From positions 1 to 64,000 of IMG/VR virus record IMGVR_UViG_3300045283_000116: a stretch of DNA of 64,000 bases; one strand, given 5' to 3'. The DNA comes from a virus. Within the stretch, counting starts at the first letter, position 1, and every line of letters starts with the position of its first letter. Below the pieces are notes generated by a model. It made no database searches, was not told where the DNA came from, and saw nothing but the letters and a program-made list of their open reading frames with translations. The position numbers and the translations under genes were made by a program. Shown here in pieces: positions 27,453 through 53,040 of the stretch.

Positions 27453-27769
27453 CCTCGGACGAGTGGCTGAGCATCGTCAAGCTCGCCCGCGACCTGGGGT
27501 CGATCGACCACCTACTGCCAGATCACGTTGAAAGCCTCATCGACATCCCGTACACGCTGGCCGCAGCCATCAGCCTTGCGACGACAGTCTGGAATTGGCG
27601 CGAGAACCTCGCGTCCGACGAGATCCCTCCGCGGCACATCTGGCTGGACGGTGAGCTTGTGACCGACTGGTTCGCCGAGGTCGACGCCGCCCGCGAGCGC
27701 AAGTACAAGGGCGAGCCGGACGGGGAGCAGAACGAGGCCGTGAACGCCCTGGTGGTCGGCGATGGCTGA
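27440..27769 (+). CDS. Tail assembly chaperone frameshift extension (T)
   Basis: No start of its own; EIPPRHIWLDGELVTDWF. Confidence 0.75.
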   Translation, partial: KSLLTSDEWLSIVKLARDLGSIDHLLPDHVESLIDIPYTLAAAISLATTVWNWRENLASDEIPPRHIWLDGELVTDWFAEVDAARERKYKGEPDGEQNEAVNALVVGDG

Positions 27770-30700
27770 TCGCAGCATCAACCCCGAGACCAACGTCAAG
27801 CTCGACAAGCTCGAGTCGACCGTCTCGCGTTTGGACACCCGCCTCGGGCAGGAGGCGCAGATCGCACGGGAGAACGCGGCGAAAGTCGAACGCGCCGCTA
27901 CGCGCCGCGCTGCCGCCGCGGAGCGAGGGACTGCACCCGCGGCGGGACCGACCGAGAAGGCGACGATCGACGAGGCCACGCTGAGCACCGAGCGCCTCGT
28001 CAAGGCGCAGGCGGATGCGCTGGCCGCGGCGCGGCAACGGCTGGCGGTCGAGCAGGAGGAGGGCCGAGTCCTCGCCGCGAACGCGGCCACGATCAGCGCG
28101 CAAGCTGAACGGGTCCGCGCGGCCGCGCGCCAAGAGAGCCCGCTGCTCCAAGCTGCGACTCGAGTCCAGCGTCTCAACGATCCGGCGCTGATCCAGGCCC
28201 GTGCCGAGCAGGAGGCGGCGATCGCGGCCCGCGGCCGGGCGTACTCGTCGCAGAAACTTCTCGGCCCCGGCCCGCAGCCGACACCGCAGCTCCTCCTCGG
28301 CGCGGGTCCACAGCCACCGCCGCAACGCCTGCTCACGGCGGGCGAAGACCTGTCGAAGGTCGCCAAGGGCTACGGCGACATGGAGCACGCCCAGGCCGCC
28401 GCGGAAACCCAGACGGCTCGCTCGACCCAGACGACCAGCCTGTTCTCCCGCGAGCTACGAGAGCTCGACGCCCAGCTTGAGTACGAGGCGCGCGCCTACA
28501 ACCTCGCGGCCGACGCTGCGGCCCGGCATGGCCTGCTGACCAGCGAGACGATCGGCTACATGGCGCGCGGTCAGGTGACGGCCCGCCAGTTCGGCGCGGA
28601 GATCCTCGGCACGATTGGCAAGTTCGCGGGCTGGACGGCCGCGGCGTCCCTGACCTTCGGCGCGGTTCGCGCGCTCGGCCTGCTGGGCAAGGGCGCGGTC
28701 GACGCGGCGTCCGGTGTCGGGCTCGTCTCGCGCGTCCTGAACAACGTCGACTCGTCGAAGCTCCAGCAGAGCTTCCGGGACCTCAGCGCGCAGTTCAACG
28801 TCCCGATCGAAGACACGGTGCAGGCGGTCTACGGCTCGGCCAAGGTCTTCAACGACCAGGCCGACGCGGTGCAGGGGGCCACGGTCGCGTTGTACGCGAT
28901 GAAGGTCGGCGAGCTCACCGCCGCTCAGTCGACGCAGTACCTCAACGCGATCGTCAACGGCTTCAAGCTCACTGCCGCCGACCTGCTGCCCGTTCTCGAC
29001 TCGGTCAACAACGTGCAGAACCGTTTTGGCGGCAACCAGGGCCAGCTCATCGCGGGCGTCGCCAAGGCTGCGGGCGCGTTCCGGCTGGCGGGCGGCAACT
29101 TCCGCGACCTGATCGCCCTGATCGAGACCGGCACGAAGCTGACCGGCGCGTCCGGGGAGAACGTTGGTACGGCGATCTCGCGCGCCGCGTCGAGACAGCT
29201 CACACCGCAGGGCGCTGCGGCCCTGCGGTCGGTCGGGATCACGCCGGGCGGCGGGTTCATGGACACCCTGACGCAGGCGGTCAAGCTCGCCAAGGACGCG
29301 TCGCCGGAGCAGGTCAACGCCCTCGCGCGAGCCCTGGTCCCTTCGGGTGGTCAATTCGCCCGGTTCTTCATCCCGATCATCCAGAACCCGCAGCTCTTGC
29401 GGCGGATTCAGGGCGCGGCCGGGGAGGACCAGGCTCAGGGTTCCGCCGCTCGCGAGTTGCGCCACGCCCTCGGGCAGGTCAACGAGCAGATCAGCGCCAT
29501 CGGCCACGGGATCGAGCGACTCGGGTCGGCGTTTGCGTCGGCCGGTGGCCTCGGCGGCGTCGGACTGCTGGTTCGCGTCCTGAACCAGGGCCTCACGATG
29601 ACGACGAGCCTGGTCGAGGAGATCAGCAAGATCCCCGGCATCAAGGTCGCCCTCCCGTTCCTTGAGCTGTACGGGATCGTCAGGGCGCTCAAGTTCTTCA
29701 ACCTTGGCGGGTCGCTGCCGGGAGCCCAGCCGGGATCGCTTCGCGGCGGCATCCAGGGTCTCGTCACTGCGAGCCCGGAGCGGATTCAGAACCGGGAGAT
29801 CCTCAAGGACTTCGAGTCCGAGCGAAACCAGCTTTCCGGCGAGGCTCAGAACGCTGCGAGGGCAAGCCGCCTGGCCGCTTCGCGAGCGAAGAACCTCGCG
29901 ATCGCAGCAGAGCAGATGGCTGTCGGGACGGAGGAGCAGGAGGCGGCGGTAGAGCGCGCCAACGTCGCGTTCCGCAAGTCGACCGAGGCGGCGCTGCTCT
30001 CCGCGCAGAAGGCCGAGGAGTTCCAGGCGCTCAACGAGCGCGAGGGCATCTACCGCTCCCTCCAGAGGGGCGGGATGGCCCCCATCCCAGCGATCACCGC
30101 CGCGGGCGGCAGGTTCGGGACCGGCACCCTGGAGCACGGGGCTGGTGGCGTACCGGTCGAGTACGCACGGTCGCTCGACGCGGCGGCCGTGGCCGACCAC
30201 AGGGCCGCGGTGGAGGCGGAGGCGTCGGCGAGGACTCGGGCCACGGCGGCAGCCGATGTCGTGGCGGCCGAGGAGGTCGCAGGCGCGCGCCGGGTGGCGG
30301 TCGTGCGGGAGGGCGTCACCACCATCTCCGAGATCGAGGCGGTCGGGATGGCCGCAGTGGCGACCCGCTGGGAAGTCGGGATGGAGCGGATCACCGCGGC
30401 CACCGTTGCCGGATTCGGCGTGATGGGAGCGGCGGTGAGGGTGGGACGCGCCGTCCCCGGTGCCGTTCGCACGGGGCTCGGAGCACGGATTGGCGGGCCG
30501 GTCGAAGCGCTGTTCGTCGCCGGGATCACCAGCAAGGCGATCTACGACCACTACGACAACTACGCCAAGCAGGAAAAGAGCTTCTCGGACGCGGCGAACG
30601 CCGGGACGGTGAACCTCGAGAAGACGGTTACGCAGGGCAAGGCGATCCAGAAGCAGAACGAGGTCACGGCGACAGGGCTGCTGAGCGACGTTGCGCAGGG

Positions 30701-32783
30701 CAAGGTCGGAGACCTCTACTTCAAGGTCACGACCGGAGTCGGGAATTGGGTCAGGGACCAGCTCGGGCTTTTCAACCAGGCCAAGCAGGACCGGGAGAAC
30801 ACGGAGGCGCTCGCGTCGGAGCTTGCGCATCAGAGGCTCGCTCAGGGCACCGGCATCACGCGCACCGACCGACAGTCGCTCATCGACGAGCAGTTGAGGA
30901 ACCTCCCCGACTGGTATCGCAGCAACCCGGCGGTCCAGCGGCAGGCCGCTCAGGTGGCCGACCGGGAGATAGCGGCAGCCAAACGACGCGGGGCCGCGGG
31001 GCAGGGCACGCTCCTGACGACGAACCAGATCGACCGGGGGCTCAGGCAGCGACTCGCCGACGCCACGAGCGACAAGGAACGCTTCGACGCCTACGACAAG
31101 GCGTCGAGCGACTTGAGCAACTCCTACGCCACGATCTTCGGCGGGAGGCAGGCCAAGGCGGCGTCGGCTGCCGAGCGGTCCAAGGTCGTCGCAGGCCGGG
31201 CGCTCCTGTCCGCCCAGACGGGCGACTGGACCGCGCTCCAGAAGGCACTTGCGGACGGCTCGATCTCCCTCGACGGCTACGCCCAGGCGATCACCGACAC
31301 GATCGCCCAGACGGGCGTCACGGGCGTCACGGTCAAGAGGGCGCAGTACGGGATCGAGCAGGCCCTCACGAACCTCGGCAAGGCGGCGTTGCTGGGTCCC
31401 GCGGGTCAGGGCGACGCGACGAAAGCGCTCAAGCAGATCAAGGACATCCAGGACTCGATCACCGGACCTGCCCAGCAGAACTTCCAGACCGCGTTGTCTC
31501 TCGCGCAGACCCCGCAGCAGGACGAGGCGGCTCGCCAGACCTACCTGGATCAGGCCCCCCGCTTCATCATGGGGGTCTTCAACAGGAGGATTCGCGCCGC
31601 GCTGGCCGACATCGCGCGACTCCAGCTTCTCCCTCGCACGACCGCCAATCTGCAAGCGCTCCGCGAGGACAGGTCGACCCTCGCGCAGACCCGCCAGCAG
31701 AGGGGCCTGTACCAGCCGACGTTCGACGCGACGGTCCTACAACAGAGCCAGCAGCATCTCGAGCAGAGCGTCTTCCCGCTGATCGACTCGAGGGCCGCGC
31801 TCGCCGAGGCCAGAACCTCAGACCCGACCGAGAAGATGCGGATCGCGCTGGAGGCAATCAACCACAAGATCCGCGACATGGTGAAGGCGCACCTGACGCA
31901 CACCAAGGAGTTCATCGACCTCCAGACCGCGGCCGCCACGGCGTTGCAGAACGTCGCCGACAACGCCGTGCAGCAGTACGACGACCAGGCCGCGGTCGCC
32001 GACTCGGCCGCGGGGATCGGAGCGACCCAGGCCCAGAAGCTCACGACGGCGCTCAACCGCTCGATCGACCGGCTCGCATTCCTGCGCAGCCACCACGCCT
32101 CCGCACACGACATCTCCCAGCAGATCGTCGCGGTCAACAACAACCGCGCGGCGTGGCAGGACTACCTGACCGGCCAGGCCCAGGCGTACGTCCGGGCGTC
32201 GGCCAATCTCGCGGCGAGCGGCACCACAGACCCGGTGAAGCTCGCAGATATCAACTTGAGGCGCGACATCCAGTTGAGCAAGTACGCGCAGACCCCGGCC
32301 GAGAAGATCGACGCGCTCGCCACGGTCCGTAGCGACCGGCAAGCTCGGCGTCAGGCGGGCTGGCAGGACCGGCTGGACACGATCAACTTCAACCTCGACA
32401 TGGGCCGGATCAGCAAGGACATCGCCGCCACGGAGATCGAGGCGCTGGCCCGGAGGGTCAAGAACAACAAGGCGTACAAGAACCAGCTCCTGCTGCAAGC
32501 GCACGAGCTCCGCGCGTCCCAGGCTGACGCCAGCAACTACGAGCTCAACGTCGGCAACATCAAGTTCCCGACCGCGTACGAGGTCATGCGCGGCATCGGG
32601 CAGGCCAACAAGGCTTCGTCGCGGACGCTGAGCACCGGCAACGTTCATGCGACTGCAAACGCAACTATCAACGTCAACGTGGCGAACAGGGGCGACGTGG
32701 GCGCGGTCTCCGACGCGATCGACACGGTTCTGTCGACTCACGTCCGATCCACGCTGCGGGCGAAGGGAGTGCTTGGCGGATGA
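27762..32783 (+). CDS. Tape measure protein
   Basis: 1,673 aa, Ala-rich helical; TMP core with GASGENVGTAISR. Confidence 0.92.
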   Translation: MADRSINPETNVKLDKLESTVSRLDTRLGQEAQIARENAAKVERAATRRAAAAERGTAPAAGPTEKATIDEATLSTERLVKAQADALAAARQRLAVEQEEGRVLAANAATISAQAERVRAAARQESPLLQAATRVQRLNDPALIQARAEQEAAIAARGRAYSSQKLLGPGPQPTPQLLLGAGPQPPPQRLLTAGEDLSKVAKGYGDMEHAQAAAETQTARSTQTTSLFSRELRELDAQLEYEARAYNLAADAAARHGLLTSETIGYMARGQVTARQFGAEILGTIGKFAGWTAAASLTFGAVRALGLLGKGAVDAASGVGLVSRVLNNVDSSKLQQSFRDLSAQFNVPIEDTVQAVYGSAKVFNDQADAVQGATVALYAMKVGELTAAQSTQYLNAIVNGFKLTAADLLPVLDSVNNVQNRFGGNQGQLIAGVAKAAGAFRLAGGNFRDLIALIETGTKLTGASGENVGTAISRAASRQLTPQGAAALRSVGITPGGGFMDTLTQAVKLAKDASPEQVNALARALVPSGGQFARFFIPIIQNPQLLRRIQGAAGEDQAQGSAARELRHALGQVNEQISAIGHGIERLGSAFASAGGLGGVGLLVRVLNQGLTMTTSLVEEISKIPGIKVALPFLELYGIVRALKFFNLGGSLPGAQPGSLRGGIQGLVTASPERIQNREILKDFESERNQLSGEAQNAARASRLAASRAKNLAIAAEQMAVGTEEQEAAVERANVAFRKSTEAALLSAQKAEEFQALNEREGIYRSLQRGGMAPIPAITAAGGRFGTGTLEHGAGGVPVEYARSLDAAAVADHRAAVEAEASARTRATAAADVVAAEEVAGARRVAVVREGVTTISEIEAVGMAAVATRWEVGMERITAATVAGFGVMGAAVRVGRAVPGAVRTGLGARIGGPVEALFVAGITSKAIYDHYDNYAKQEKSFSDAANAGTVNLEKTVTQGKAIQKQNEVTATGLLSDVAQGKVGDLYFKVTTGVGNWVRDQLGLFNQAKQDRENTEALASELAHQRLAQGTGITRTDRQSLIDEQLRNLPDWYRSNPAVQRQAAQVADREIAAAKRRGAAGQGTLLTTNQIDRGLRQRLADATSDKERFDAYDKASSDLSNSYATIFGGRQAKAASAAERSKVVAGRALLSAQTGDWTALQKALADGSISLDGYAQAITDTIAQTGVTGVTVKRAQYGIEQALTNLGKAALLGPAGQGDATKALKQIKDIQDSITGPAQQNFQTALSLAQTPQQDEAARQTYLDQAPRFIMGVFNRRIRAALADIARLQLLPRTTANLQALREDRSTLAQTRQQRGLYQPTFDATVLQQSQQHLEQSVFPLIDSRAALAEARTSDPTEKMRIALEAINHKIRDMVKAHLTHTKEFIDLQTAAATALQNVADNAVQQYDDQAAVADSAAGIGATQAQKLTTALNRSIDRLAFLRSHHASAHDISQQIVAVNNNRAAWQDYLTGQAQAYVRASANLAASGTTDPVKLADINLRRDIQLSKYAQTPAEKIDALATVRSDRQARRQAGWQDRLDTINFNLDMGRISKDIAATEIEALARRVKNNKAYKNQLLLQAHELRASQADASNYELNVGNIKFPTAYEVMRGIGQANKASSRTLSTGNVHATANATINVNVANRGDVGAVSDAIDTVLSTHVRSTLRAKGVLGG

Positions 32784-43702: not shown

Positions 43703-44115
43703 GGTCAACCCGTACGCCGATCCGGGGGATCTTCTCGCATACGATGACGGCCACCGGCGCTGCCGGATTCATAGTCGCGACTCTCGCGCCCGTGGGCGGT
43801 AATCAGATGGTGGCGTCGGGTGTGATGAACACCATCGTCATCCCTCGCGATGGCTGGTACAAGTTTTCGTTGGACGCGCAGTATCAGAACTCCGCTGGTA
43901 GTGCCTTTTACTCGTATGTTCAGCAGAACGGGACTAACATCATCATCGTGTCGGGCAATCAGAACGCTGTGGCATCCGCCCCTACGGCGGCCTACAGTCG
44001 TGTGGCCTGGTGCAAGGCGGGGGATAGGATTGTCGTTCAATCGAGCCACAACGAGGGCGGAGCGACAGTTCGCCAGATCAATGGCGTTCTGACGATTGAG
44101 GAGATCGTGTCATGA
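43699..44115 (+). CDS. C1q/TNF-like fibre-associated protein
   Basis: [12 protein letters not shown]...CKAGDRIVV. Confidence 0.6.
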
Positions 44116-45185
44116 GGCTCCACGTCGTCAGCCTGCCCCACACGCAGACGACCGGCGAGTACAACCAGTGCGCCTACACGGCCAAGGCCACCCGGTTCTG
44201 CACGATGATGACCGACCTCGGTCACGACGTGATCCTGTACGCCTCCGAGGAGAACGAGGCGCGCTGCGCCGAGCTGGTGACGTGCATCACGAAGAACCAG
44301 CAGGAGAACATGATCCCGGAGGGCGAGGTCTACGAGGTCGACTTCGACCCGACGCTGCCGTTCTGGCGGCACTTCAACGCCAAGGTGATCGAGAAGCTGC
44401 GCCCGCGGCTCGAGCCTCACGACTTCATCTGCCTGACGGTCGGCGACCCGCACCGCGAGATCGTCGAGGCGTACCCGAACCACATCGTTGTCGAGACTGG
44501 AGTCGGATACGAAGGCATCCTGCCGTCGACGTGGAAGGTGTACGAGAGCTACGCATGGATGCACGCCATGTACGGGAAGAACGGCCCGACCGCCGCTGAC
44601 GGCCGCGCGTTCGACGCGGTGATCCCGAACTTCTACGACGTGGATGACTTCCCGGCCGGGGACGGGGACGGCGGCTACTACGCCTTCCTGTCGCGGATGA
44701 CGCCGCGCAAGGGGCCGACGATCGCGATCGACGCCGCGGCCGAAGTTGGCGCGGAACTGTGGGTCGGCGGGTCGGGCGGCGACCGGATCGAGGCCGACCA
44801 CGTGAAGTACCTCGGGTTTCTGGACGCAGAGGGGCGCGCGAAGGCGCTGGGCGGCGCGATCGCGACGTTCGTCCCAACGCAGTACATCGAGCCGTTCGGC
44901 GGGGTCGCGGTCGAGTCGATGCTTTGCGGGACTCCGGTCATCACTTCGGACTTCGGCGCGTTCACCGAGACGGTGCACCACGGCGTTGACGGCTACCGCT
45001 GTCACGTGATGGGCGAGTACGTCATCGCCGCACTGGCCGCCCACGAGCTCGACCGCGACGCGATCCGCGAGTCGGCGATCTCGCGATTCTCGACGGAGGT
45101 TGCGGGTCGCAGATACGAGCTGCACTTCGGCCGGTTGCTGACGCTGTGGGGCGCAGGGTTCTACGAAGGGGTGACCGTCCGGTGA
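44112..45185 (+). CDS. Glycosyltransferase family 4 (GT-B)
   Basis: RMTPRKG...EPFGGVAVESMLCGTPVITSDFGAFTE. Confidence 0.9.
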   Translation: MRLHVVSLPHTQTTGEYNQCAYTAKATRFCTMMTDLGHDVILYASEENEARCAELVTCITKNQQENMIPEGEVYEVDFDPTLPFWRHFNAKVIEKLRPRLEPHDFICLTVGDPHREIVEAYPNHIVVETGVGYEGILPSTWKVYESYAWMHAMYGKNGPTAADGRAFDAVIPNFYDVDDFPAGDGDGGYYAFLSRMTPRKGPTIAIDAAAEVGAELWVGGSGGDRIEADHVKYLGFLDAEGRAKALGGAIATFVPTQYIEPFGGVAVESMLCGTPVITSDFGAFTETVHHGVDGYRCHVMGEYVIAALAAHELDRDAIRESAISRFSTEVAGRRYELHFGRLLTLWGAGFYEGVTVR

Positions 45186-46933
45186 CGATCACTTCGATCG
45201 CGCCGGACCGTACGACGGCGACGATCGACCACACGATCATCGTCGACATCGTCGGCGGCGTGAACGTGATGCCCGCCATCCAGCGCCAGTGGTGCTTCGA
45301 GGCGATCGACACCTGCGCGTTCGACTGGATGCGTCTCGCCGCCGCGGTAGGTGTGAACACGCACGACTCGACCCTCGGGCAGGCCGGAGTCACGCCCGCC
45401 AACATCCGCATCGTCTGCGAGGTCGTGCCGAAGGGGAGCATCTCGCGCTTCGACCAAGGCGAATACGGCTACGGCGTGTGGGGCGACCCGCGGCTTCCGG
45501 AGAACCACGTCTACATCTGGGATGGCCTCGGGGCCAACCCGCCGCCGTTCGGTGGCCGCATGTTCTTCAAGGAGACCGTCATCCATGCGCTCGGGGACAT
45601 CGCCACCGTGGCGCTCGCGCCGCAGAAGGACCCGTGGAAGATGGCGGAGCTCGGGATGGCGATGGGTCTCGGCACCGTCACCACCGAGAGCTTCGACACG
45701 CCGAACACGCCTCCGGACCTGCTCATGCCTCCGGACTCCCGTCCGAAGCAGACCGACCTCAACAACATGAAGAAGCCCAGCATCAACGAGGCGTACAACG
45801 CCTGGCTCGGCGTCGGAAAGCACATCAAGCAGCTACACCGCGACGACTTCTTCGAGCCGATCCCCGGCTTCCCGGACGAAACGGACAACTTCTACTACCT
45901 GTATTGGGGCAAGACGGTCGGGCTCGACGGCGTGCCCGGCATGTACAACCCCGACAATCCGGAGGTCGTCGGCGGGGGCGGGATGTTCCAGGAGACGTAC
46001 ATCACCGTCGACGCGCCGCCGTGGGACGAGGACCCGCGCGAGTTCATGGCCGAAGCGTTCAAGGACATCTACGCCGCCAACGGCGCGTACCGCTTCGCCA
46101 ACAGGACGAAACTCAAGGCGGACTATCGGGTCGTCGACAAGCACTTCTCGATCCTGCTGCCCCTGGGTGGCACCGGCTACACGGGGGCGGCGTCCGACAT
46201 CGGCTCGGCGCTGCTGGGGGTCAATCAGGACACGGGTGCCCTGACCCAGAACGAGCTGTCGATCCGCACCGGCCTGCCGCACTCGAAGATCACGCAGCAC
46301 TCCTCGATCCAGACGCGGCCGTGGGGAATGGAGGACGAGCCTCACGTGGTGGGCACGACCTACGAGGTCTCGGTTCAGACGACGATCGAACAGCAGGACG
46401 AACGGCAGACGGTCACCGCGCACGAGGGCTACAAGCGTGGGCTCACGATCGCGCTCAAGATCGACGAGCCCCACGGCGGAGTGTCCGAGGAGGACTGGTT
46501 GGCCGGGGTCGGGCTCGGGATCATCGGCAGCCAGATCAACATGCAGATCCTCGTCAATATCGCGACGTTGCCCGACCACAGCCCGCCGAACCCCTTGATC
46601 CGGCCGGGCATCGACTTCGGCAACACCATCGACGGCGTGACTGAAGTCTCACCCTTCCTGGCCGGGGTAGCGGTCATCAACCGCCACGCGCCGAACGGCT
46701 CCCCCGCTACGTTCCCGCTGAACATCCACGCCGAGTGGCACGCGCACTCGAGACGGGGGCCGGGGCGACTTGCGACTGGAGTCGTGAAGGTCAAGGGCTG
46801 GGACAACGGTGTGATGGTCCCGGCCGATCGGCACATGGGGCGCGGTGTGACGGCGGCCGACCAACACGAGCCCGCCGTATTGGACTCCGGTGGCACCGGA
46901 TACGCGCAGCCCTTGACGGTCAACGGCATCTGA
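45182..46933 (+). CDS. Large hypothetical protein with degenerate zincin-like motif
   Basis: ETVIHALGD...PREFMAEAF. Confidence 0.6.
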   Translation: MTITSIAPDRTTATIDHTIIVDIVGGVNVMPAIQRQWCFEAIDTCAFDWMRLAAAVGVNTHDSTLGQAGVTPANIRIVCEVVPKGSISRFDQGEYGYGVWGDPRLPENHVYIWDGLGANPPPFGGRMFFKETVIHALGDIATVALAPQKDPWKMAELGMAMGLGTVTTESFDTPNTPPDLLMPPDSRPKQTDLNNMKKPSINEAYNAWLGVGKHIKQLHRDDFFEPIPGFPDETDNFYYLYWGKTVGLDGVPGMYNPDNPEVVGGGGMFQETYITVDAPPWDEDPREFMAEAFKDIYAANGAYRFANRTKLKADYRVVDKHFSILLPLGGTGYTGAASDIGSALLGVNQDTGALTQNELSIRTGLPHSKITQHSSIQTRPWGMEDEPHVVGTTYEVSVQTTIEQQDERQTVTAHEGYKRGLTIALKIDEPHGGVSEEDWLAGVGLGIIGSQINMQILVNIATLPDHSPPNPLIRPGIDFGNTIDGVTEVSPFLAGVAVINRHAPNGSPATFPLNIHAEWHAHSRRGPGRLATGVVKVKGWDNGVMVPADRHMGRGVTAADQHEPAVLDSGGTGYAQPLTVNGI

Positions 46934-46949
46934 CGGTAGGGTTTTCCGC

Positions 46950-47035
46950 TGCGACAAAAAATGCGACGCCGCTGGACGGAGTTGTCCTAGACCGAGGACC
47001 ATTCCCGCGCTGAACCAGCGGCGTCGCAGTCGTTC
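46950..47035 (+). ncRNA. Structured leader upstream of rlpA-rpf
   Basis: TGCGACGCCGCTGG (46962-46975) pairs with CCAGCGGCGTCGCA (47015-47028); TAGGGT -10-like at 46937. Confidence 0.4.
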
Positions 47036-47059
47036 TACCACCTACCCGTAGGAGGAGAC

Positions 47060-47572
47060 ATGACGACGGACAAGGGTCCGCAGCATTTCATGGTCGGATT
47101 CGTCGGAGGTCTGACGATCGGCCTGTTGGTCGGCTGGCTCTATCTCAGCGGCGGCTCTGCTGGTGCGAAGCCGCGGCCGCACTGCTCCCCCGCGTGCGTC
47201 GAGCGCGTGAAGGGCAAGATCAGGAAGCGCCTGCACCACCGGCACGTACTGGAGGCGCGCCACGCTCGGTATCGGGCGGCGAAGGAACGTGCGGGCATGG
47301 CGACCGCCGTCGCGTCGTGGTACGAGGACGCCGGAGGAACGGCGTGCGGAACGCACTACAGGGACGGAGTGGCCCACAAGACGTTGCCGTGCGGCACGTT
47401 CGTCCGGATGTGCGCGGTGCGTTGCGTGACCGCGACCGTTCAAGACCGAGGGCCGTTCATCGCAGGACGCGAGTTCGATCTCAATCCTGGCCTCAAGGCC
47501 GACATCGGGTGCGGCGACATCTGCACGGTCCGTTGGGCCGTCGTCACCGAGCACCCTCCGACCGGAAGGTAG
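47060..47572 (+). CDS. rlpA: RlpA-like (double-psi beta-barrel) lytic transglycosylase, membrane-anchored
   Basis: N-terminal TM; ASWY...TACG...AHKTLPCGT...VQDRGPFIAGREFDL. Confidence 0.88.
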   Translation: MTTDKGPQHFMVGFVGGLTIGLLVGWLYLSGGSAGAKPRPHCSPACVERVKGKIRKRLHHRHVLEARHARYRAAKERAGMATAVASWYEDAGGTACGTHYRDGVAHKTLPCGTFVRMCAVRCVTATVQDRGPFIAGREFDLNPGLKADIGCGDICTVRWAVVTEHPPTGR

Positions 47573-47574
47573 AC

Positions 47575-47967
47575 ATGACCGTCCTACTGGCCTCACTGGC
47601 GCTCGTCGCCGCCCCGCATCCCATCCACCACCCCCGGCCCAGCCACTCGCCCTGTTCGATCGCGTGTATCGAGCGGGTGAAGACCAAGATCCGGCACGAC
47701 ATCCGGGTGCGCCATCGCAAGGAATGGCGGGCCTTCATCGCCCCGTACGTCGGCTGGCTCAGATCGACGCGCTCGTGCGAGTCGGGCGGCGACTACAAGA
47801 TCAACACGGGCAACGGGTTCTACGGTGCGTACCAGTTCGTCCTGACCACCTGGCAGTCGATGGGTGGCCGCGGGTTGCCCAACGACGCTTCGCCATTGGA
47901 GCAGGACTACCGGGCGGTGAAGCTGCTCAAGGCGGCTGGCACCGGGCCGTGGCCCGTCTGCGGGTAG
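47575..47967 (+). CDS. rpf: Resuscitation-promoting factor (Rpf) transglycosylase, secreted
   Basis: MTVLLASLALVAA signal; CESGGDYKINTGNGFYGAYQF..TTW...ASPLEQ...GPWPVCG with catalytic Glu and both Cys. Confidence 0.92.
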   Translation: MTVLLASLALVAAPHPIHHPRPSHSPCSIACIERVKTKIRHDIRVRHRKEWRAFIAPYVGWLRSTRSCESGGDYKINTGNGFYGAYQFVLTTWQSMGGRGLPNDASPLEQDYRAVKLLKAAGTGPWPVCG

Positions 47968-47979
47968 TCGTAGATTAGG
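47967..47979 (+). promoter_or_regulatory. Late promoter-like motif (copy 5, lysis cassette)
   Basis: Exact GTCGTAGATTAGG. Confidence 0.75.
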
Positions 47980-47990
47980 GGGCGAGCAAT

Positions 47991-48206
47991 GTGCTCGCCC
48001 TCGCCGCTGAAACCCTGTTTGGTGCAGTCGCCGCGCTGTGCTCCATCATCGGCATAGCGATGGCGATCCTCAGCCATATCGCTGGGCGCAGGAACGCGGC
48101 CGAGCAGGCTGCCGATGAGCTGCACGAGAAGCTGCTGGCTGAGCAGCGCCGCTCCGAGGAGCTCTCAGCCGAGCTCCACAGGCTGAGGATGGAGGAGCTG
48201 TCGTGA
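47991..48206 (+). CDS. TM plus coiled-coil lysis-cassette protein
   Basis: One TM then a charged helix. Confidence 0.6.
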
Positions 48207-48616
48207 GACTCGGGTCTACAGCGACCGCTGTGCTGCTGGCCGGTGGCCTGGGCATGACTGGAGTCGCAGGCTTCTTCACGGCCAAGGCCGTCACCGCCAG
48301 CGCACAGTCGGCGGGGACAACCCGGACGGTCACCGTCGACGTGGGCACGGGCGTGATCGGGCCGCCCGGACCGCCTGGTCCGAAGGGTGACACCGGAGCG
48401 AAGGGTGCGACGGGCGACACTGGCCCCACCGGACCTGCCGGACCTGCTGGCGACACCGGCCCGGCCGGACCCGCTGGTCCGAAGGGCGACAAGGGCGACA
48501 CGGGTCCCGCGGGCGGCATCATCTGCCCTGCCGGGTTCAGCGAAGGGTTCGTGCAGATCAACGGAGCGGGTGGGCACGTCGTCATCTACACCTGCGTGGA
48601 GGACACAGCACCATGA
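48203..48616 (+). CDS. Exported collagen-like protein in lysis cassette
   Basis: Hydrophobic N-terminus, (GXY) about 20 repeats, C-terminal CPAGF...YTC. Confidence 0.8.
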
Positions 48617-48843
48617 GCGAAATCATCAAGCGTGCGTGGAAGGAACCCGCCGTCGGCATCGGCCTACTGGTCACCGTGGCCCTGGCGATCGGGGCCGCTG
48701 CGACAAGCTCTGACTGGAGTTGGGAGACGATCGTGGCGGTGCTGTCCCCGCTGCTGGCCGGGCTCGGCATCCGGCCGCTGGTGACCCCGGTCAAGAAGCC
48801 TGCGGATGTTGTACCATCGCCGCAAGGCGATACTGCGGTCTGA
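48613..48843 (+). CDS. Holin-like two-TM protein
   Basis: KEPA...two TMs...IRPLVTPV. Confidence 0.7.
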
Positions 48844-48999
48844 GGCTCGATCTGGCTACCTTTCGGCTGCCGCGTCCGCCACAGACGAGTGAGCCTTTGG
48901 CTTAGCGAGTCGCTCCGGTCCGGGGCGGCTCGCGGCCTTTCTGGACGGATGTTCGGTACATCTTCGACGCGCGATGGCCGATCATCGGGTCGTAGGGTT

Positions 49000-49113
49000 G
49001 AACATCGTCTTGGCCGGTCCCACGGCGGCATACCACCGGGACCGGAGGGGCCACAGGCGACGATCCCCTTCGACCGCGACCCGCCACCTACCCCGGCGGG
49101 TCGCGGTCGTTCT
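49000..49113 (+). ncRNA. Candidate small RNA ending in a 15-bp terminator stem
   Basis: GTCGTAGGGTT at 48989; nested stems 49004-49064; CGACCGCGACCCGCC/GGCGGGTCGCGGTCG 49071-49109. Confidence 0.4.
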
Positions 49114-49164
49114 GCGTCCGGTTCGGTTTGTATCCTGGGCTGAAATCACGACCCACGGAGCGAA

Positions 49165-50139
49165 ATGCCTGACACCCCGCAAGAAGTCGAACTCGCCGCC
49201 GAACAGCACGGGTCCCGGTGGTTCCACGCCCCGCCAGCCGGAGAGGACTTCGCCGCCTGGTTCGCCGCCAACGTGAAGATCCACGAGGGCATGGAGCACG
49301 CGCCGTACGTCACCGGCTGCGTGATGATCGGCAGCCAGGAGACCTACAAGCGCACGATCCAGAAGGCCAACGGCGAGCTCGTGTTCCTGGACTCCAAGCG
49401 CCGGGTCTACACGCCGTACGCCAAAGTCGAGACTCGAGTCGCGTACTTCTGGGACCTGATGGACACCGACGGCTTCGACGACGTGGTCGGCATGATCGAG
49501 CCGGTCCCGATGGCGAGCCTCAACGACCCCGGCTACGTCAACTACAACCTGCCGCCCGGCTTCTTCCGCATCCCGATCGGCCTCGGCGGCAACATCGTCA
49601 GCTACATCGGCTGCTCGATGAAGGTCAGCATGTGGGACAAGGGCTCGATCATGTGGGTCGAGCGCGAGGAGGTCACCCGGCTCCCGGACGGCACGGAGAC
49701 CACGCGGCCCTTCCACGAGTTGCAGGGCACGCCCGTTCGCGTGTTCCCCTCGGCGACCAAGATGGTGCCCGTCCTGAGCCGCAGCGACGAGGAGGACCCG
49801 TTCGCGGTGATGAAGGCAGAGACCGGCGCGGTCGGCCGCGCGCTCGGTATGGCCGGGATGCTCGTGATCCCCGGCTCCGGTGTCGCCACTGCCGACGACA
49901 TGCTCGAGGTCGACTCGATCACCCGCGGCGTAACTTCCGACCCGAGTCTCCCGGCAGCACCCCAGGCGGCCGCGGAGGGCGTCGACGAGGTCGAGGAGCT
50001 CAAGGTGCGATTCGAGGCGCTGGATAAGGGCCAGCAGACGATCGTCGAGGAGTGGGCGGAGGGCCGCAAGATCGACCTGAGCAACCCGAAGTCGACGCAG
50101 CTCCGGGCGATCCGCGCGCAGATCGACCGCCTGTCGTGA
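49165..50139 (+). CDS. Putative single-strand annealing protein (Rad52/Sak-like)
   Basis: YAKVETRVAYF and KAETGAVGRALGMAG...VATADDM motifs. Confidence 0.55.
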   Translation: MPDTPQEVELAAEQHGSRWFHAPPAGEDFAAWFAANVKIHEGMEHAPYVTGCVMIGSQETYKRTIQKANGELVFLDSKRRVYTPYAKVETRVAYFWDLMDTDGFDDVVGMIEPVPMASLNDPGYVNYNLPPGFFRIPIGLGGNIVSYIGCSMKVSMWDKGSIMWVEREEVTRLPDGTETTRPFHELQGTPVRVFPSATKMVPVLSRSDEEDPFAVMKAETGAVGRALGMAGMLVIPGSGVATADDMLEVDSITRGVTSDPSLPAAPQAAAEGVDEVEELKVRFEALDKGQQTIVEEWAEGRKIDLSNPKSTQLRAIRAQIDRLS

Positions 50140-50342
50140 AAGAGGTCGAGCACCACGAAGCGTCGGACGGCCGGACGTTTAGGACATTCACCGTCCCGTG
50201 TTTCCATATGGACCCGTGCTGGCAGGGGCGCTGCCAGTGCGGCGAGGCGCTGACGAAGCACGACGACACCCGCGAGATGTCCATTCGCTGCTCCCTGGAG
50301 GCGCTCAGGAAGGACCACCCGACGTGCAGACGACGGAAGTAG
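50136..50342 (+). CDS. Small Cys/His protein
   Basis: GTGA overlap; CQCG...H. Confidence 0.5.
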   Translation: MKEVEHHEASDGRTFRTFTVPCFHMDPCWQGRCQCGEALTKHDDTREMSIRCSLEALRKDHPTCRRRK

Positions 50343-50698
50343 CGCTGGAGTACCTGCCGCCGTCCTACAACGTCCTGATGCGGAGCCACTGGCGCAAGCA
50401 GGCCAAGCTCAAGGCCGACCTCCAGCAGGACATCACGATCATGCTGCTCGCGGTCAAGCTGCCACGGCTCCTGTCGTTCGTCAGGGCCACGGCGGTCCTG
50501 ATCGTCCCGGACCGGCGCAAGCGTGACGAGGGCAACTACCGCACACCGCTGGAGAAGGCCCTCGGCGATGCCCTCGCGCCGAGTGGCGGGCATGGGTGGC
50601 TCCCCGACGACACGCCGCAGCACTACCGGTTCGAGCGACTGGAGTTCGAGCACGTTCCAAGGAGCTCGAGGACGCTCCTCTCCTTGGAGTACCGATGA
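50324..50698 (+). CDS. rusA: RusA-like Holliday junction resolvase
   Basis: PPSYN...HW...RKRDEGN...KALGDAL...GWLPDD. Confidence 0.75.
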   Translation: MQTTEVALEYLPPSYNVLMRSHWRKQAKLKADLQQDITIMLLAVKLPRLLSFVRATAVLIVPDRRKRDEGNYRTPLEKALGDALAPSGGHGWLPDDTPQHYRFERLEFEHVPRSSRTLLSLEYR

Positions 50699-50725
50699 TC
50701 CGACCGAAGTCGTAGCATCATCGAC

Positions 50726-51799
50726 ATGGCCGACAACTACGGGAAGCTCACCACCACCGAGCAGGGCTACTGGAACGTCTACACCCGACTTCGCCAGCTC
50801 TCGGATTGGGCAGGCTTCACGGACGGCCAGGACGACGCCAAGACCAAGTCGCGCAACTGGCTGGAGCAGCAGCGCAAGGAAATCTGGCGGCAGGCCCAGC
50901 CGAAATCCGACGGCGGTGACGGCAAGGGCTGGGACGTGAACAACCGCCGCGAGCGCTACGCGCAGTTGGCTGACGACTCCTTGAACGGCGGCTCGCCGCG
51001 GAACCTGTGCCAGCTTCCGACTGGAGGCGGAACTGCGACCGAGAAGGCCAAGATCGCCGAGCGCGAGATGTGGTGGAACCAGTCGAGCGTCGACGACGCC
51101 ACGAAGCAGTGGCGGACGAACAACTCGTCGTGGCTGACGGAGCGCCGCAAGCAGCTTTGGCATCTCATCAACGACGAGGGCGGCTCCCCGGCCTACAACC
51201 GCCAGTCGCGCTACGACGCGATGTGCGTCGCCACGAAGACCGGCGAGCCGTACGACTCGTGGGCCAAGACCCACGACGTGAACACGGGCGGCACGAAACC
51301 GAAGCCCGCTCCGGCCCCCACGCCGCCGTCGAGCCGCGAGAAGGCGGTCGAGCAGGCCCGCTCCTACCTCGGCGTTCACGAGAGCCCCGCTGGCTCCAAC
51401 CGCGGCAACCCGCAGCCGTCCGGCTGGCAGCGCCGCCTGCTCGGCTCGGACGGGTTCGCGTGGTGCGCGTGCTTTACGACCTGCATGGCCTGGGACGCGG
51501 GGGTGAAGGGCGGAAGCTCGGCCGGGGTCATCGTCATCATGTCGATGGCGCAGAGGGGCCAGGGCATGTTCAAGGGCTGGACTACCGACCCGAGTCGCGT
51601 TTTGCGGGGCGACATGGCGGTCATCGGCTGCGCGTCCTGCCACATTGGCCTGGTCGCGGACTCCAACGATCCCTATCACCTGATCGAAGGCAACACGTCC
51701 CCCGGCAGCGAAGGCAGCCAGTACGCCGGGGGCTGCGTGGCCGAGAAGCGCCGCCCGCGCGGGGCGATCATCGGCTGGGCGCTCGTCGACTACCCGTAG
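50726..51799 (+). CDS. Endolysin, C-terminal CHAP domain, N-terminal duplicated helical repeat
   Basis: ARSYLGVHE..GSN...AWCACF...HIGLV...IEGNT. Confidence 0.88.
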   Translation: MADNYGKLTTTEQGYWNVYTRLRQLSDWAGFTDGQDDAKTKSRNWLEQQRKEIWRQAQPKSDGGDGKGWDVNNRRERYAQLADDSLNGGSPRNLCQLPTGGGTATEKAKIAEREMWWNQSSVDDATKQWRTNNSSWLTERRKQLWHLINDEGGSPAYNRQSRYDAMCVATKTGEPYDSWAKTHDVNTGGTKPKPAPAPTPPSSREKAVEQARSYLGVHESPAGSNRGNPQPSGWQRRLLGSDGFAWCACFTTCMAWDAGVKGGSSAGVIVIMSMAQRGQGMFKGWTTDPSRVLRGDMAVIGCASCHIGLVADSNDPYHLIEGNTSPGSEGSQYAGGCVAEKRRPRGAIIGWALVDYP

Positions 51800-51808
51800 G
51801 AGAGACCG

Positions 51809-52069
51809 ATGACCGTAACGATGAGCGTAGCCATCTCGTTCGACGCCGACACCCCCGAGGAGGGTCAGGCGATGGTGCACGCGATGAACATCCCCGAGGG
51901 CGCGCAGGTGAACGTCAACGCGAACGTGCATCTCGTGGCGGGCGTCGTGGATGCCCGTGGCGTCGTGGCCCCCCCCGGCCCGCCCGAGCAAGTTCTCGCC
52001 GAGGCCGCGGAGGAGGCAGCAGCAGCGCTTCCTCTCGGCGAGCCAGTGCCCGTAGAGTCCGACTCATGA
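51809..52069 (+). CDS. Hypothetical protein
   Basis: AGGAG RBS. Confidence 0.55.
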   Translation: MTVTMSVAISFDADTPEEGQAMVHAMNIPEGAQVNVNANVHLVAGVVDARGVVAPPGPPEQVLAEAAEEAAAALPLGEPVPVESDS

Positions 52070-52326
52070 CCGAGCTTCCCGAGACCCCCGTCATCCAGTA
52101 CCGCGACGCGAAGACCGGCGAGTACGTTACCGCCGAGTACGCGGAGGCGAACCCCGACACGACGGTCAGCGAGACCGAGACCGGCAGCGACGACCTGCTC
52201 ATCGAGACCGGCGTCATGGAGCAAGTGCAGGCCGCGCAGGACAAGTTCGAGCACGACGAGGCCAACGAGGAAGCGATCGTCAGCAACACCGAGCCCGAGG
52301 ACGACGGGCTGCCGGACGCCGAGTAA
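52066..52326 (+). CDS. Acidic small protein
   Basis: YRDAKTGEYVTAEYAEANPDTTVSE motif; ATGA overlap. Confidence 0.65.
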   Translation: MTELPETPVIQYRDAKTGEYVTAEYAEANPDTTVSETETGSDDLLIETGVMEQVQAAQDKFEHDEANEEAIVSNTEPEDDGLPDAE

Positions 52327-52362
52327 CGGATCAACAACTCGCGACTGCGGTCGTAGCGTAGT

Positions 52363-52890
52363 GTGGCTGGCGGGATGCTCACCTTCTGGCAGCGGCTCGT
52401 CTACAACAACGCGCAGTTCCTCGCAGGGCAGTTCCGGCGCTGGGCCGACCAGCTTGACGCCGCTGCTCCGGGGCCTCCGGTGGTGGCATTCCCGATCCTG
52501 TTCATCACCGGAAAGGAAATCTCCGTGGGCCACATCACCGTGCGCGACTCGACCGCGCCGATCAAGGCGTCCGTCACGTTCAAGGACGCTGCCGGACACG
52601 ACACCGCACCCGAAGGTCTGCCGACCTGGACCTCATCCGACGAGGCGGTAGCGACCGTCGTCGCATCCGAGGACGGCCTGTCGGCCGAGGTCACCGCGGG
52701 CTCGCCGGGTGCCGCCGTCATCGAGGTCAAGGAAGTGGACAACGCCGGGCAGGAGATCGTGTCTCAGGGCACCGTCACCGTGCAGCCGGGCGACGCCGTG
52801 ATCGGCGAGATCCACTTCGAGGGCGAGGACGCTCCCGCCGTCCCGGATCAGAGCCTTCCCGGCGACCAGCCGGAGATCAACCCGCTCTAG
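52363..52890 (+). CDS. Ig-like (Big_2-type) domain protein
   Basis: PTWTSSDEAVATV...GAAVIEV...TVTV. Confidence 0.7.
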   Translation: MAGGMLTFWQRLVYNNAQFLAGQFRRWADQLDAAAPGPPVVAFPILFITGKEISVGHITVRDSTAPIKASVTFKDAAGHDTAPEGLPTWTSSDEAVATVVASEDGLSAEVTAGSPGAAVIEVKEVDNAGQEIVSQGTVTVQPGDAVIGEIHFEGEDAPAVPDQSLPGDQPEINPL

Positions 52891-52910
52891 GGCGGGCTAC
52901 GCTGACGCAG

Positions 52911-52943
52911 CAGCGGCCCGGTAGATCATCCGCCGGGCCGCTG
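52911..52943 (+). terminator. Hairpin
   Basis: CAGCGGCCCGG / CCGGGCCGCTG. Confidence 0.6.
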
Positions 52944-52947
52944 TCCT

Positions 52948-53040
52948 GTGATCGCCACCACGAACATCGCCGCGATCGCGGGACTAATCGCCGTCCTGAT
53001 CTTCGCGATCCTCGTCGCGCTCTACGCCTCCAACAAGTAG
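52948..53040 (+). CDS. 30-aa single-TM peptide (not in ORF track)
   Basis: VIATTNIAAIAGLIAVLIFAILVALYASNK. Confidence 0.5.
   Translation: MIATTNIAAIAGLIAVLIFAILVALYASNK

Follow-up and report, generated by a model that had tools for sequence, protein, structure and literature searches.

Two adjacent genes of a soil phage, here called open reading frame (ORF) A and ORF B, encode small proteins in which two unrelated glycan-cutting folds stand behind one and the same short leader, a basic segment bracketed by cysteines. They lie on the plus strand of IMG/VR virus record IMGVR_UViG_3300045283_000116, labelled G000 in the analysis, and the window that was analysed comprises the first 64 kb (64,000 nucleotides) of this 84,692-bp record. 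ORF A (P0001; 47060..47572, 170 aa) was identified as a predicted exported double-psi beta-barrel (DPBB) protein of the RlpA-like lytic-transglycosylase type and ORF B (P0002; 47575..47967, 130 aa) as a predicted exported Rpf-type transglycosylase-like protein, for the former by Pfam and for the latter by its PF06737 match, and for both by alignments and by AlphaFold2 (AF2) models searched with Foldseek. The reading favoured here, with a probability of about one half, is that A and B are Sec-exported accessory muralytic enzymes of a split lysis region that cooperate with the endolysin of the phage. An initial annotation of the window had described two free-standing, adjacent RlpA-like and Rpf-like phage genes and proposed that their products wake dormant neighbouring hosts or alter division of the infected cell. 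The pair itself was confirmed, the stop codon of A and the ATG of B being 2 nt apart, and the waking or division reading is not the most economical one. The most interesting element of the locus is the leader on two unrelated folds, not the Rpf label.

ORF B matches Pfam family PF06737 (Transglycosylas) with 75.2 bits against a cut-off of 27 over residues 67-129. The Rpf catalytic domain as delimited by Pfam, alignments and Foldseek covers residues 57-130 (47743..47964, plus strand) and includes C68-E69-S-G-G and C129. Residues C68, E69 and C129 are invariant in 22 homologues, and the glutamate of the CESGG motif and both cysteines are retained in the alignment with RpfE, RpfC and RpfB of M. 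tuberculosis. The AF2 model of ORF B has a mean predicted local distance difference test score (pLDDT) of 88, and Foldseek aligned it with RpfE, RpfC and RpfB (4cge, 4ow1 and 4emn) at a root-mean-square deviation of 1.3-1.5 Å, with 41-46% identity and a target-normalised TM-score of 0.7-0.84. ORF B scores below the NCBIfam equivalog cut-offs for Rpf, reaching 65.7 bits against 180 for NF046106 and 58.5 against 200 for NF046107. The catalytic fold, the CESGG glutamate, the disulfide pair and secretion, the last of these predicted for ORF B, are shared with M. tuberculosis RpfB, RpfC and RpfE and with Micrococcus luteus Rpf. ORF B differs from these proteins in its equivalog scores and in a phage-type leader that replaces their DUF348/G5/LysM or Pro-Ala regions.

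The match of ORF A to Pfam DPBB_1 (PF03330) reaches 43.8 bits against a cut-off of 28.8 over residues 82-145, and the profile search for Rpf-type transglycosylase and DPBB_1 domains proposed in the initial annotation has thus given both domains above the Pfam cut-offs. The DPBB domain, delimited by Pfam, alignments and Foldseek, extends over residues 82-165 (47303..47554, plus strand). Its residues D129 (in D-R-G-P) and D140 (in F-D-L) are invariant across 20 homologues and align with the DPBB protein PA4485, and we take the DRGP aspartate to be the catalytic residue in Pseudomonas RlpA. The catalytic motifs are accordingly intact in both proteins, as had been claimed, and the catalytic domains of A and B are strongly conserved over many homologues. 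With the AF2 model of ORF A (mean pLDDT 84) the best Foldseek match was PA4485, followed by the RlpA-like domain of the baseplate hub of cyanophage A-1(L) (PDB 8kea) and then by expansins; kiwellins and a papain inhibitor, which like the expansins are non-enzymatic DPBB folds, were among the further matches.

RlpA of Pseudomonas, Vibrio and E. coli, a septal-ring lytic transglycosylase, and PA4485 have in common with ORF A a DPBB_1 domain with the signature D-R-G-P-F ... G-R-x-x-D-L. Unlike RlpA, ORF A is under the cut-offs of the RlpA subfamily models (28 bits against 82.15 for TIGR00413 and 15.9 against 201 for PRK10672) and has extra cysteines in the domain. It is RlpA-like in its catalytic barrel alone, since no lipobox was found after the hydrophobic segment (...LSGGSAGAKPRPHC), no SPOR match was obtained and the protein ends just past the DPBB domain. 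The extra cysteines (C96, C111, C118, C122, C151 and C155) are conserved in ORF A and its close homologues, and two cysteine pairs in the domain also have C-x3-C spacing.

Export had been proposed in the initial annotation and is predicted here for both proteins, whose N-termini are hydrophobic and whose homologues, those of A as well as those of B, have canonical signal peptides ending in AxA. In ORF A, residues 10-36 (47087..47167, plus strand) comprise a long, Gly-rich hydrophobic segment of 20 residues followed by S-A-G-A, with a helix at residues 15-29 in the AF2 model, and this part may be either a cleaved signal peptide or an N-terminal membrane anchor. The signal-like N-terminus of ORF B is short and its n-region is without positive charge. 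Signal-arrest-release (SAR) endolysins have regulatory cysteines and a weakly hydrophobic, Gly/Ala-rich N-terminal segment that leaves the membrane; the segment of ORF A, FMVGFVGGLTIGLLVGWLYLSGGSAG, is Gly-rich and has a Cys pair after it, but the homologues of A have ordinary signal peptides.

The leader common to A and B consists of the signal peptide, a His-rich stretch, a C-x3/4-C-x2-R-V unit and a long basic helix. After the signal peptide, the sequence common to the two proteins is P-R-P-(H/S)-...-C-x3-C-(V/I)-E-R-V-K-x-K-I-R. It is located at residues 38-78 of ORF A (47171..47293, plus strand; P-R-P-H-C-x3-C-x-E-R-V-K and the long basic helix, from the BLASTP comparison of A with B and AF2) and at residues 20-52 of ORF B (47632..47730, plus strand; His-rich stretch, C27-x3-C31, E-R-V-K and basic helix, from BLASTP and alignments). 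BLASTP of A against B gave 18 identical residues out of 33 in the leader, and the identity of the core at the DNA level is about 79%. In the AF2 models one long helix leads from the second leader cysteine to the catalytic domain, at residues 29-70 in B and 44-78 in A. Many homologues, in the family of A as well as in that of B, have the leader ahead of their catalytic domain, usually in the form of a His-rich stretch followed by G-C-x-T-x-x-C-x-x-R-(V/M)-D.

Among the retrieved proteins the leader is carried by 93 of 119 Rpf-like and 15 of 47 DPBB proteins. When longer proteins were searched with a profile of the leader only, all matches were small proteins with PF06737 or PF03330 and nothing else was obtained. 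An exhaustive hidden Markov model (HMM) search of 1.84 billion representatives with the leader gave 16 matches, 14 of them real and all of these Rpf-like or DPBB proteins; the remaining two, P0180 and P0185, were discarded as repetitive translations unrelated to the family. Five of the 14 (the metagenome representatives P0181, P0183, P0184, P0188 and P0192) have two or three tandem copies of the leader ahead of the Rpf-like domain. Of 21 viral-contig loci with an Rpf-like gene, 10 have the leader. It was not found in any of the 80 best bacterial-genome loci, whose single regular-expression match was an upstream artefact, nor in any of 401 Solirubrobacterales genomes, whose single match was an antisense-frame artefact inside ABC-transporter genes. 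The bacterial homologues have longer helical basic regions that lack the leader cysteines. From the tandem copies, the occurrence with two folds only and the absence from the sampled bacterial genomes it follows that the leader is a small repeatable module limited to two glycan-cutting folds, and its distribution argues for a putative phage-specific use of these enzymes.

According to Ravagnani et al. 2005 (PMC1084345), an Rpf domain and a DPBB-type (Sps/3D) domain can stand in for each other in the growth-factor-like proteins of Firmicutes and Actinobacteria. This non-orthologous domain displacement resembles the gene pair in that one N-terminal architecture is combined with either an Rpf or a DPBB-related (MltA-like) domain. 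It is a swap between phyla with DUF348/G5 as the shared part, whereas here both domains are side by side in one phage and share a Cys-bracketed basic unit of about 20 residues. A more far-reaching proposal, to which we give only a minor chance, is that this basic unit, which is rich in His and bracketed by cysteines (G-C-x-T-x-x-C-x-x-R-V and the helix), is a phage-specific module, not described before, for the control or targeting of exported glycan cutters, and that it has moved between two unrelated folds. Such a module would serve in anchoring to the wall, in pairing of A and B through the helices and cysteines, or in latency until a redox or membrane change at lysis. Disulfide caging keeps the SAR lysozyme of phage P1 latent. 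In the bolder version of this proposal the gene pair would be a phage-borne resuscitation system.

Each of the two genes has a strong ribosome-binding site, AGGAGG (47050..47055, plus strand) 4 nt ahead of the ATG of ORF A and GGAAGG (47564..47569, plus strand) ahead of ORF B, both read from the sequence. Translational coupling of A and B is likely, since GGAAGG abuts the stop codon of A and the gap is only 2 nt. A strong hairpin (46962..47028, plus strand), which has a perfectly paired stem of 14 bp and a structured loop of 39 nt but lacks a U-tract, is located between ORF A and the preceding 595-aa gene, in a gap of 126 nt and about 30 nt from the ATG of A. With z scores of -4.1 to -4.6 and none of 200 shuffles folding as well, it may be a terminator or a stabiliser. 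Directly 3′ of ORF B is a second hairpin (47978..48002, plus strand) with an 11-bp stem, a z score of -3.4 and no U-tract, which overlaps the GTG start codon of the gene that follows. With a strong hairpin on either side the pair resembles a bracketed cassette, and its independent transcription is only putative.

A promoter-like site of its own and an RNA leader had both been attributed to the pair in the initial annotation, and neither was recovered. A scan of 44000-53000 for the sigma-70 consensus found no promoter-like site, and 46000-49200 had no match to Rfam families, hence no c-di-AMP riboswitch was detected there; such a riboswitch precedes some bacterial rpf genes. What the 126-nt gap holds is the hairpin. 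The stem of this hairpin was also considered as a dispersed repeat and rejected, its counts in the window being at chance level, and a family-wide upstream leader RNA was dropped after the upstream regions of eight relatives showed no exceptional structure (z = +1.4 to -1.3).

The pair is separate from the endolysin-like gene (50726..51799, plus strand), as had been stated, at a distance of 2.8 kb. The product of this gene, 357 aa and without signal peptide, matches PHROG endolysin families in its C-terminal half (E = 1e-9) and TIGR02594 weakly. The label of CHAP endolysin given in the initial annotation was not confirmed: it has only these PHROG and TIGR02594 matches behind it, and no match was obtained in Pfam or PDB sequences and nothing firm in NCBIfam. 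The N-terminal part of about 200 residues has no match in Pfam, PHROGs, NCBIfam or PDB sequences and is 52-66% identical in five related phages.

Homologues of the endolysin-like protein with 52-66% identity are encoded near an Rpf-like or DPBB gene in five of the compared loci, which are designated by L numbers. A gap of 236 nt separates the endolysin homologue of L005 from the Rpf-like gene behind it, and the distance to the Rpf-like or DPBB gene is 1.9 kb in L008, 3.7 kb in L184 and 7.4 kb in L003. The fifth, L018, contains in this order the endolysin homologue, a protein with two transmembrane (TM) segments, a TM-plus-helix protein, a collagen-like homologue and, 1.2 kb on, the Rpf-like gene, the whole set occupying no more than 3.5 kb. 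A related set of small genes, all on the plus strand, follows ORF B in the window. A 71-aa protein with an N-terminal TM segment and a charged helix (47991..48206; read from sequence, no family match) is a candidate lysis-associated membrane protein, and a protein of similar build occupies the same relative position in L018. Next is a predicted exported collagen-repeat protein of 137 aa (48203..48616; Pfam Collagen), 42% identical to the product of L018 6475-6783, which is located between the holin-like and the Rpf-like genes. It has a conserved C-terminal part, and its gene stands among genes for small membrane proteins. A 76-aa protein with two hydrophobic segments (48613..48843; read from sequence, no family match) has a holin-like build, and two-TM proteins of similar size are encoded directly 3′ of the endolysin in L003 and L018. 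After the 76-aa protein come one of 324 aa, a RusA-like resolvase and lastly the endolysin-like protein. The linkage to the endolysin and the gene order in the relatives suggest that the lysis region of G000 is split and that the pair is part of it.

Several observations weigh against this assignment. The endolysin-like gene was assigned through PHROGs alone, two recombination-type genes stand between it and the pair in G000, and no sequence similarity was detected between the 76-aa protein and the two-TM proteins of L003 and L018. In L006, L007, L010 and L011 the Rpf-like gene is located between tail and helicase/recombination genes with no endolysin within the 16 kb examined, and in L003 it comes after the integrase. 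The linkage to the endolysin is loose also in L191, where a PAPS reductase gene is 3′ of the Rpf-like gene. Furthermore, a region of 8 kb to either side is 20-40% of such a genome and the phages are related to each other, for which reasons the genomic context is counted as moderate evidence and the co-location as modest.

The distribution of the pair was investigated in 101 loci with an Rpf-like gene (8 kb to either side) and 160 loci with a DPBB gene (6 kb to either side) from viral, metagenome and genome collections. Both genes together were found in the genome of the window only among these approximately 260 loci, and the comparison of synteny proposed in the initial annotation thus gave no conserved module. 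A single-protein scan with ORF B found no close relatives in viral contigs. L011, which is syntenic with G000 from the tail to the recombination genes, has the Rpf-like gene alone at the equivalent place, and L184, with the endolysin that is 66% identical, has the DPBB gene alone. The tandem arrangement of Rpf and DPBB genes is treated as occasional and not as a conserved operon. DPBB genes as such are common in viral contigs (409 confirmed stretches), and in cultured phages they were found in cyanophages and Rhodobacter phages only.

The phage itself is represented by a record of about 97% completeness with 67% G+C. Its virion genes run rightward in one block, which includes a tape measure of 1673 aa and a collagen/lectin fibre of 2110 aa, and are followed by a GT1 glycosyltransferase gene and the 595-aa gene ahead of the pair. 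The tape measure (27762-32783) has PhageMin_Tail as its sole Pfam domain, and no Pfam muralytic motif was found in it or in the large tail proteins of the phage. A tyrosine integrase gene (PF00589, 65.7 bits) is located past the end of the window at 66006-66455 of the G000 contig on the minus strand, so the phage is probably temperate; a serine recombinase was searched for and not found, and no tRNA genes were found in the window. Identical DNA, with zero differences, recurs in soil metagenomes of several studies. Soil contigs from four runs cover the upstream gap, ORF A and the start of ORF B and all match the window exactly, leaving no variation for a test of selection, and no RNA datasets are listed among the sources of the phage DNA.

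The host is probably a high-GC Gram-positive bacterium belonging to the Solirubrobacterales or to a group related to them. Among bacteria, ORF B is matched best by metagenome-assembled genomes of Solirubrobacterales/Thermoleophilia, followed by Acidimicrobiia. One Solirubrobacterales genome encodes a full-length homologue of the endolysin-like protein with 38% identity, and 13 of the 301 sampled have weaker homologues. This full-length homologue (L266; G022 contig 57, 37402-38472, minus strand) contains one in-frame TGA within an open frame of 960 aa; it may represent the remains of a prophage and point to the host. The phage has no close cultured relative, since tblastn of cultured phages with the endolysin-like protein gave no match and the 700-aa ORF at 16376-18478 has distant matches alone, to portal proteins of Bacillus phages.

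Free exported Rpf-type genes are already known in cultured actinophages. In Streptomyces phage BRock, gp43 (Rpf-LysM) adjoins gp44 (NlpC/P60) and is three genes from the amidase endolysin gp40; Rhodococcus phage REQ1 gp63 is an Rpf-M23-LysM protein, and gp102 of prophage prophi79-1 is a bare Rpf. Like the pair, BRock gp43/gp44 and REQ1 gp63 bring together an exported Rpf-type domain and another wall hydrolase at a site that is near the endolysin and separate from it. They differ from it in that the partner is a peptidase (NlpC/P60 or M23), in that the wall is bound by LysM and, in REQ1, in that the domains are fused. BRock gp44 (L264 2374-2859) is labelled 'glycoside hydrolase' in its record and matches Pfam NlpC/P60 at 80 bits, so this annotation appears to be wrong. 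Secretory phage endolysins, which have a signal peptide, include Lys44 of fOg44 and Kayvirus Tgl.

The closest comparison with experimental data is Tgl of Kayvirus, a PF06737 protein with signal peptide encoded three genes from lysK, which is exported by the host and digests walls (PMC7150955). Tgl lyses S. aureus only when the membrane potential is collapsed by nisin, and its authors use the term second endolysin (PMC7150955). Like ORF B, Tgl is a small, stand-alone, phage-encoded PF06737 protein; it has a signal peptide, as is predicted for ORF B, and is encoded a few genes from a CHAP/amidase endolysin that has none. Tgl differs in its Bacillota host and in having neither a Cys/basic leader nor a DPBB partner, and its activity and export are experimental where those of the pair are predicted.

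For the favoured reading the following course is proposed. The Sec pathway would export A and B across the host membrane during infection. Four parts make up each protein: the signal peptide, which in A may instead remain uncleaved as an anchor; a brief His-rich segment; the Cys-x3-Cys-x2-Arg-Val unit, with which a long basic helix begins; and the domain that is predicted to cleave glycan, in A a barrel of the DPBB/RlpA type and in B a lysozyme-like domain of the Rpf type. The basic, Cys-bracketed leader may keep the enzymes at the producing cell, bound to its wall or membrane, or may control them in another way. A and B would cut the glycan strands, and a cytoplasmic endolysin-like peptidase or amidase, released by the holin-like proteins, would cut the peptides, the combined action giving faster or more complete lysis of a thick Gram-positive wall. 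Rpf enzymes work together with NlpC/P60 peptidases. RlpA-type enzymes favour peptide-stripped glycan strands (PMC6895207). Both properties fit a cooperation of A and B with the endolysin-like protein.

The proposal that a secreted Rpf-type enzyme and a DPBB glycan cutter from infected or lysogenic cells stimulate growth or resuscitation of dormant hosts, and so provide replicating hosts or a benefit to the lysogen, is considered improbable, although it is the strongest of the alternatives. ORF B does have a true Rpf-type domain with the fold kept and the identity to RpfE, RpfC and RpfB given above, the phage has an integrase and a soil habitat, the pair sits between its hairpins like an inserted cassette, and the Rpf-like gene directly 3′ of the integrase in L003 is in a typical moron position; the described interchangeability of Rpf and Sps/3D domains in growth-factor-like proteins points the same way (PMC1084345). 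However, the sigma-70 scan gave no independent promoter, the pair is co-oriented and contiguous with late genes and is not a conserved module among the related loci, and ORF B stays well below the Rpf equivalog cut-off (65.7 bits against 180). The strongly basic and sometimes tandem leader would suit retention at the wall rather than diffusion. The small membrane-protein and collagen-like genes next to the pair are the same as those around the endolysin of a related phage, and the stand-alone exported Rpf-like genes of cultured actinophages have another small wall hydrolase as neighbour and the endolysin in their vicinity. No report of cells woken by a phage Rpf was found in the literature, and Kayvirus Tgl, the nearest among experimentally studied phage proteins that have this Pfam domain and a signal peptide, acts as a second endolysin that is secreted (PMC7150955).

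Export soon after infection, with loosening or reshaping of the wall as in a block of septation, enlargement or preparation for lysis, is less probable still. Such early remodelling agrees with the position of the gene at the edge of or within the replication/recombination block in several relatives, with the early transcription of Kayvirus tgl by the host polymerase (PMC7150955) and with the role of Pseudomonas RlpA in daughter-cell separation (PMC6895207), but the pair of G000, for which no promoter was detected, shares its strand with the tail genes and is 3′ of them. It also overlaps the lysis reading, as early export could be combined with late action. That A and B are entry enzymes of the virion which cut the wall locally during DNA injection is unlikely, as both are small and have N-terminal export signals that would place them outside the cytoplasm, where virions are assembled, their homologues carry cleavable signal peptides and no tail-attachment domain was seen in either. 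This possibility is raised by the position of the pair shortly 3′ of the tail-fibre, glycosyltransferase and 595-aa genes, by the lack of a Pfam muralytic domain in the tape measure and large tail proteins, by the baseplate hub of A-1(L) as second-best structural match of ORF A, and by the Rpf motifs of mycobacteriophage tape measures, which were mentioned in the initial annotation and are documented (PMC1796659), e.g. for TM4. The TM4 motif and the A-1(L) hub domain are the same two domain types directed against the wall; they are parts of large virion proteins acting at entry, whereas A and B are small and predicted to be exported. Least probable of all, and by our estimate very unlikely, is wall binding with no cutting by one of the proteins or by both, which would then serve as inhibitor, decoy or loosening factor of the expansin kind. 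The expansins, kiwellins and papain inhibitor among the structural matches of ORF A and its score under the RlpA subfamily cut-off (28 bits against 82) would allow this, but the family-invariant acidic residues in A, the catalytic glutamate in B and the strong conservation of both catalytic domains across many homologues speak for cutting.

Exported wall hydrolases of phages beyond the holin-endolysin pair are common in sequence data and hardly any of them have been studied, Kayvirus Tgl being among the few tested cases. The present locus is a compact natural experiment with two unrelated glycan-cutting folds behind one small leader in one phage. Since the majority of bacteria in soil are inactive, the question of dormancy has ecological appeal, and nothing here yet favours the dormancy reading. 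The function of the leader, be it wall targeting, pairing or latency, could reveal a new control of secreted lysins in phages of Gram-positive soil bacteria, and the leader could yield a small portable targeting tag.

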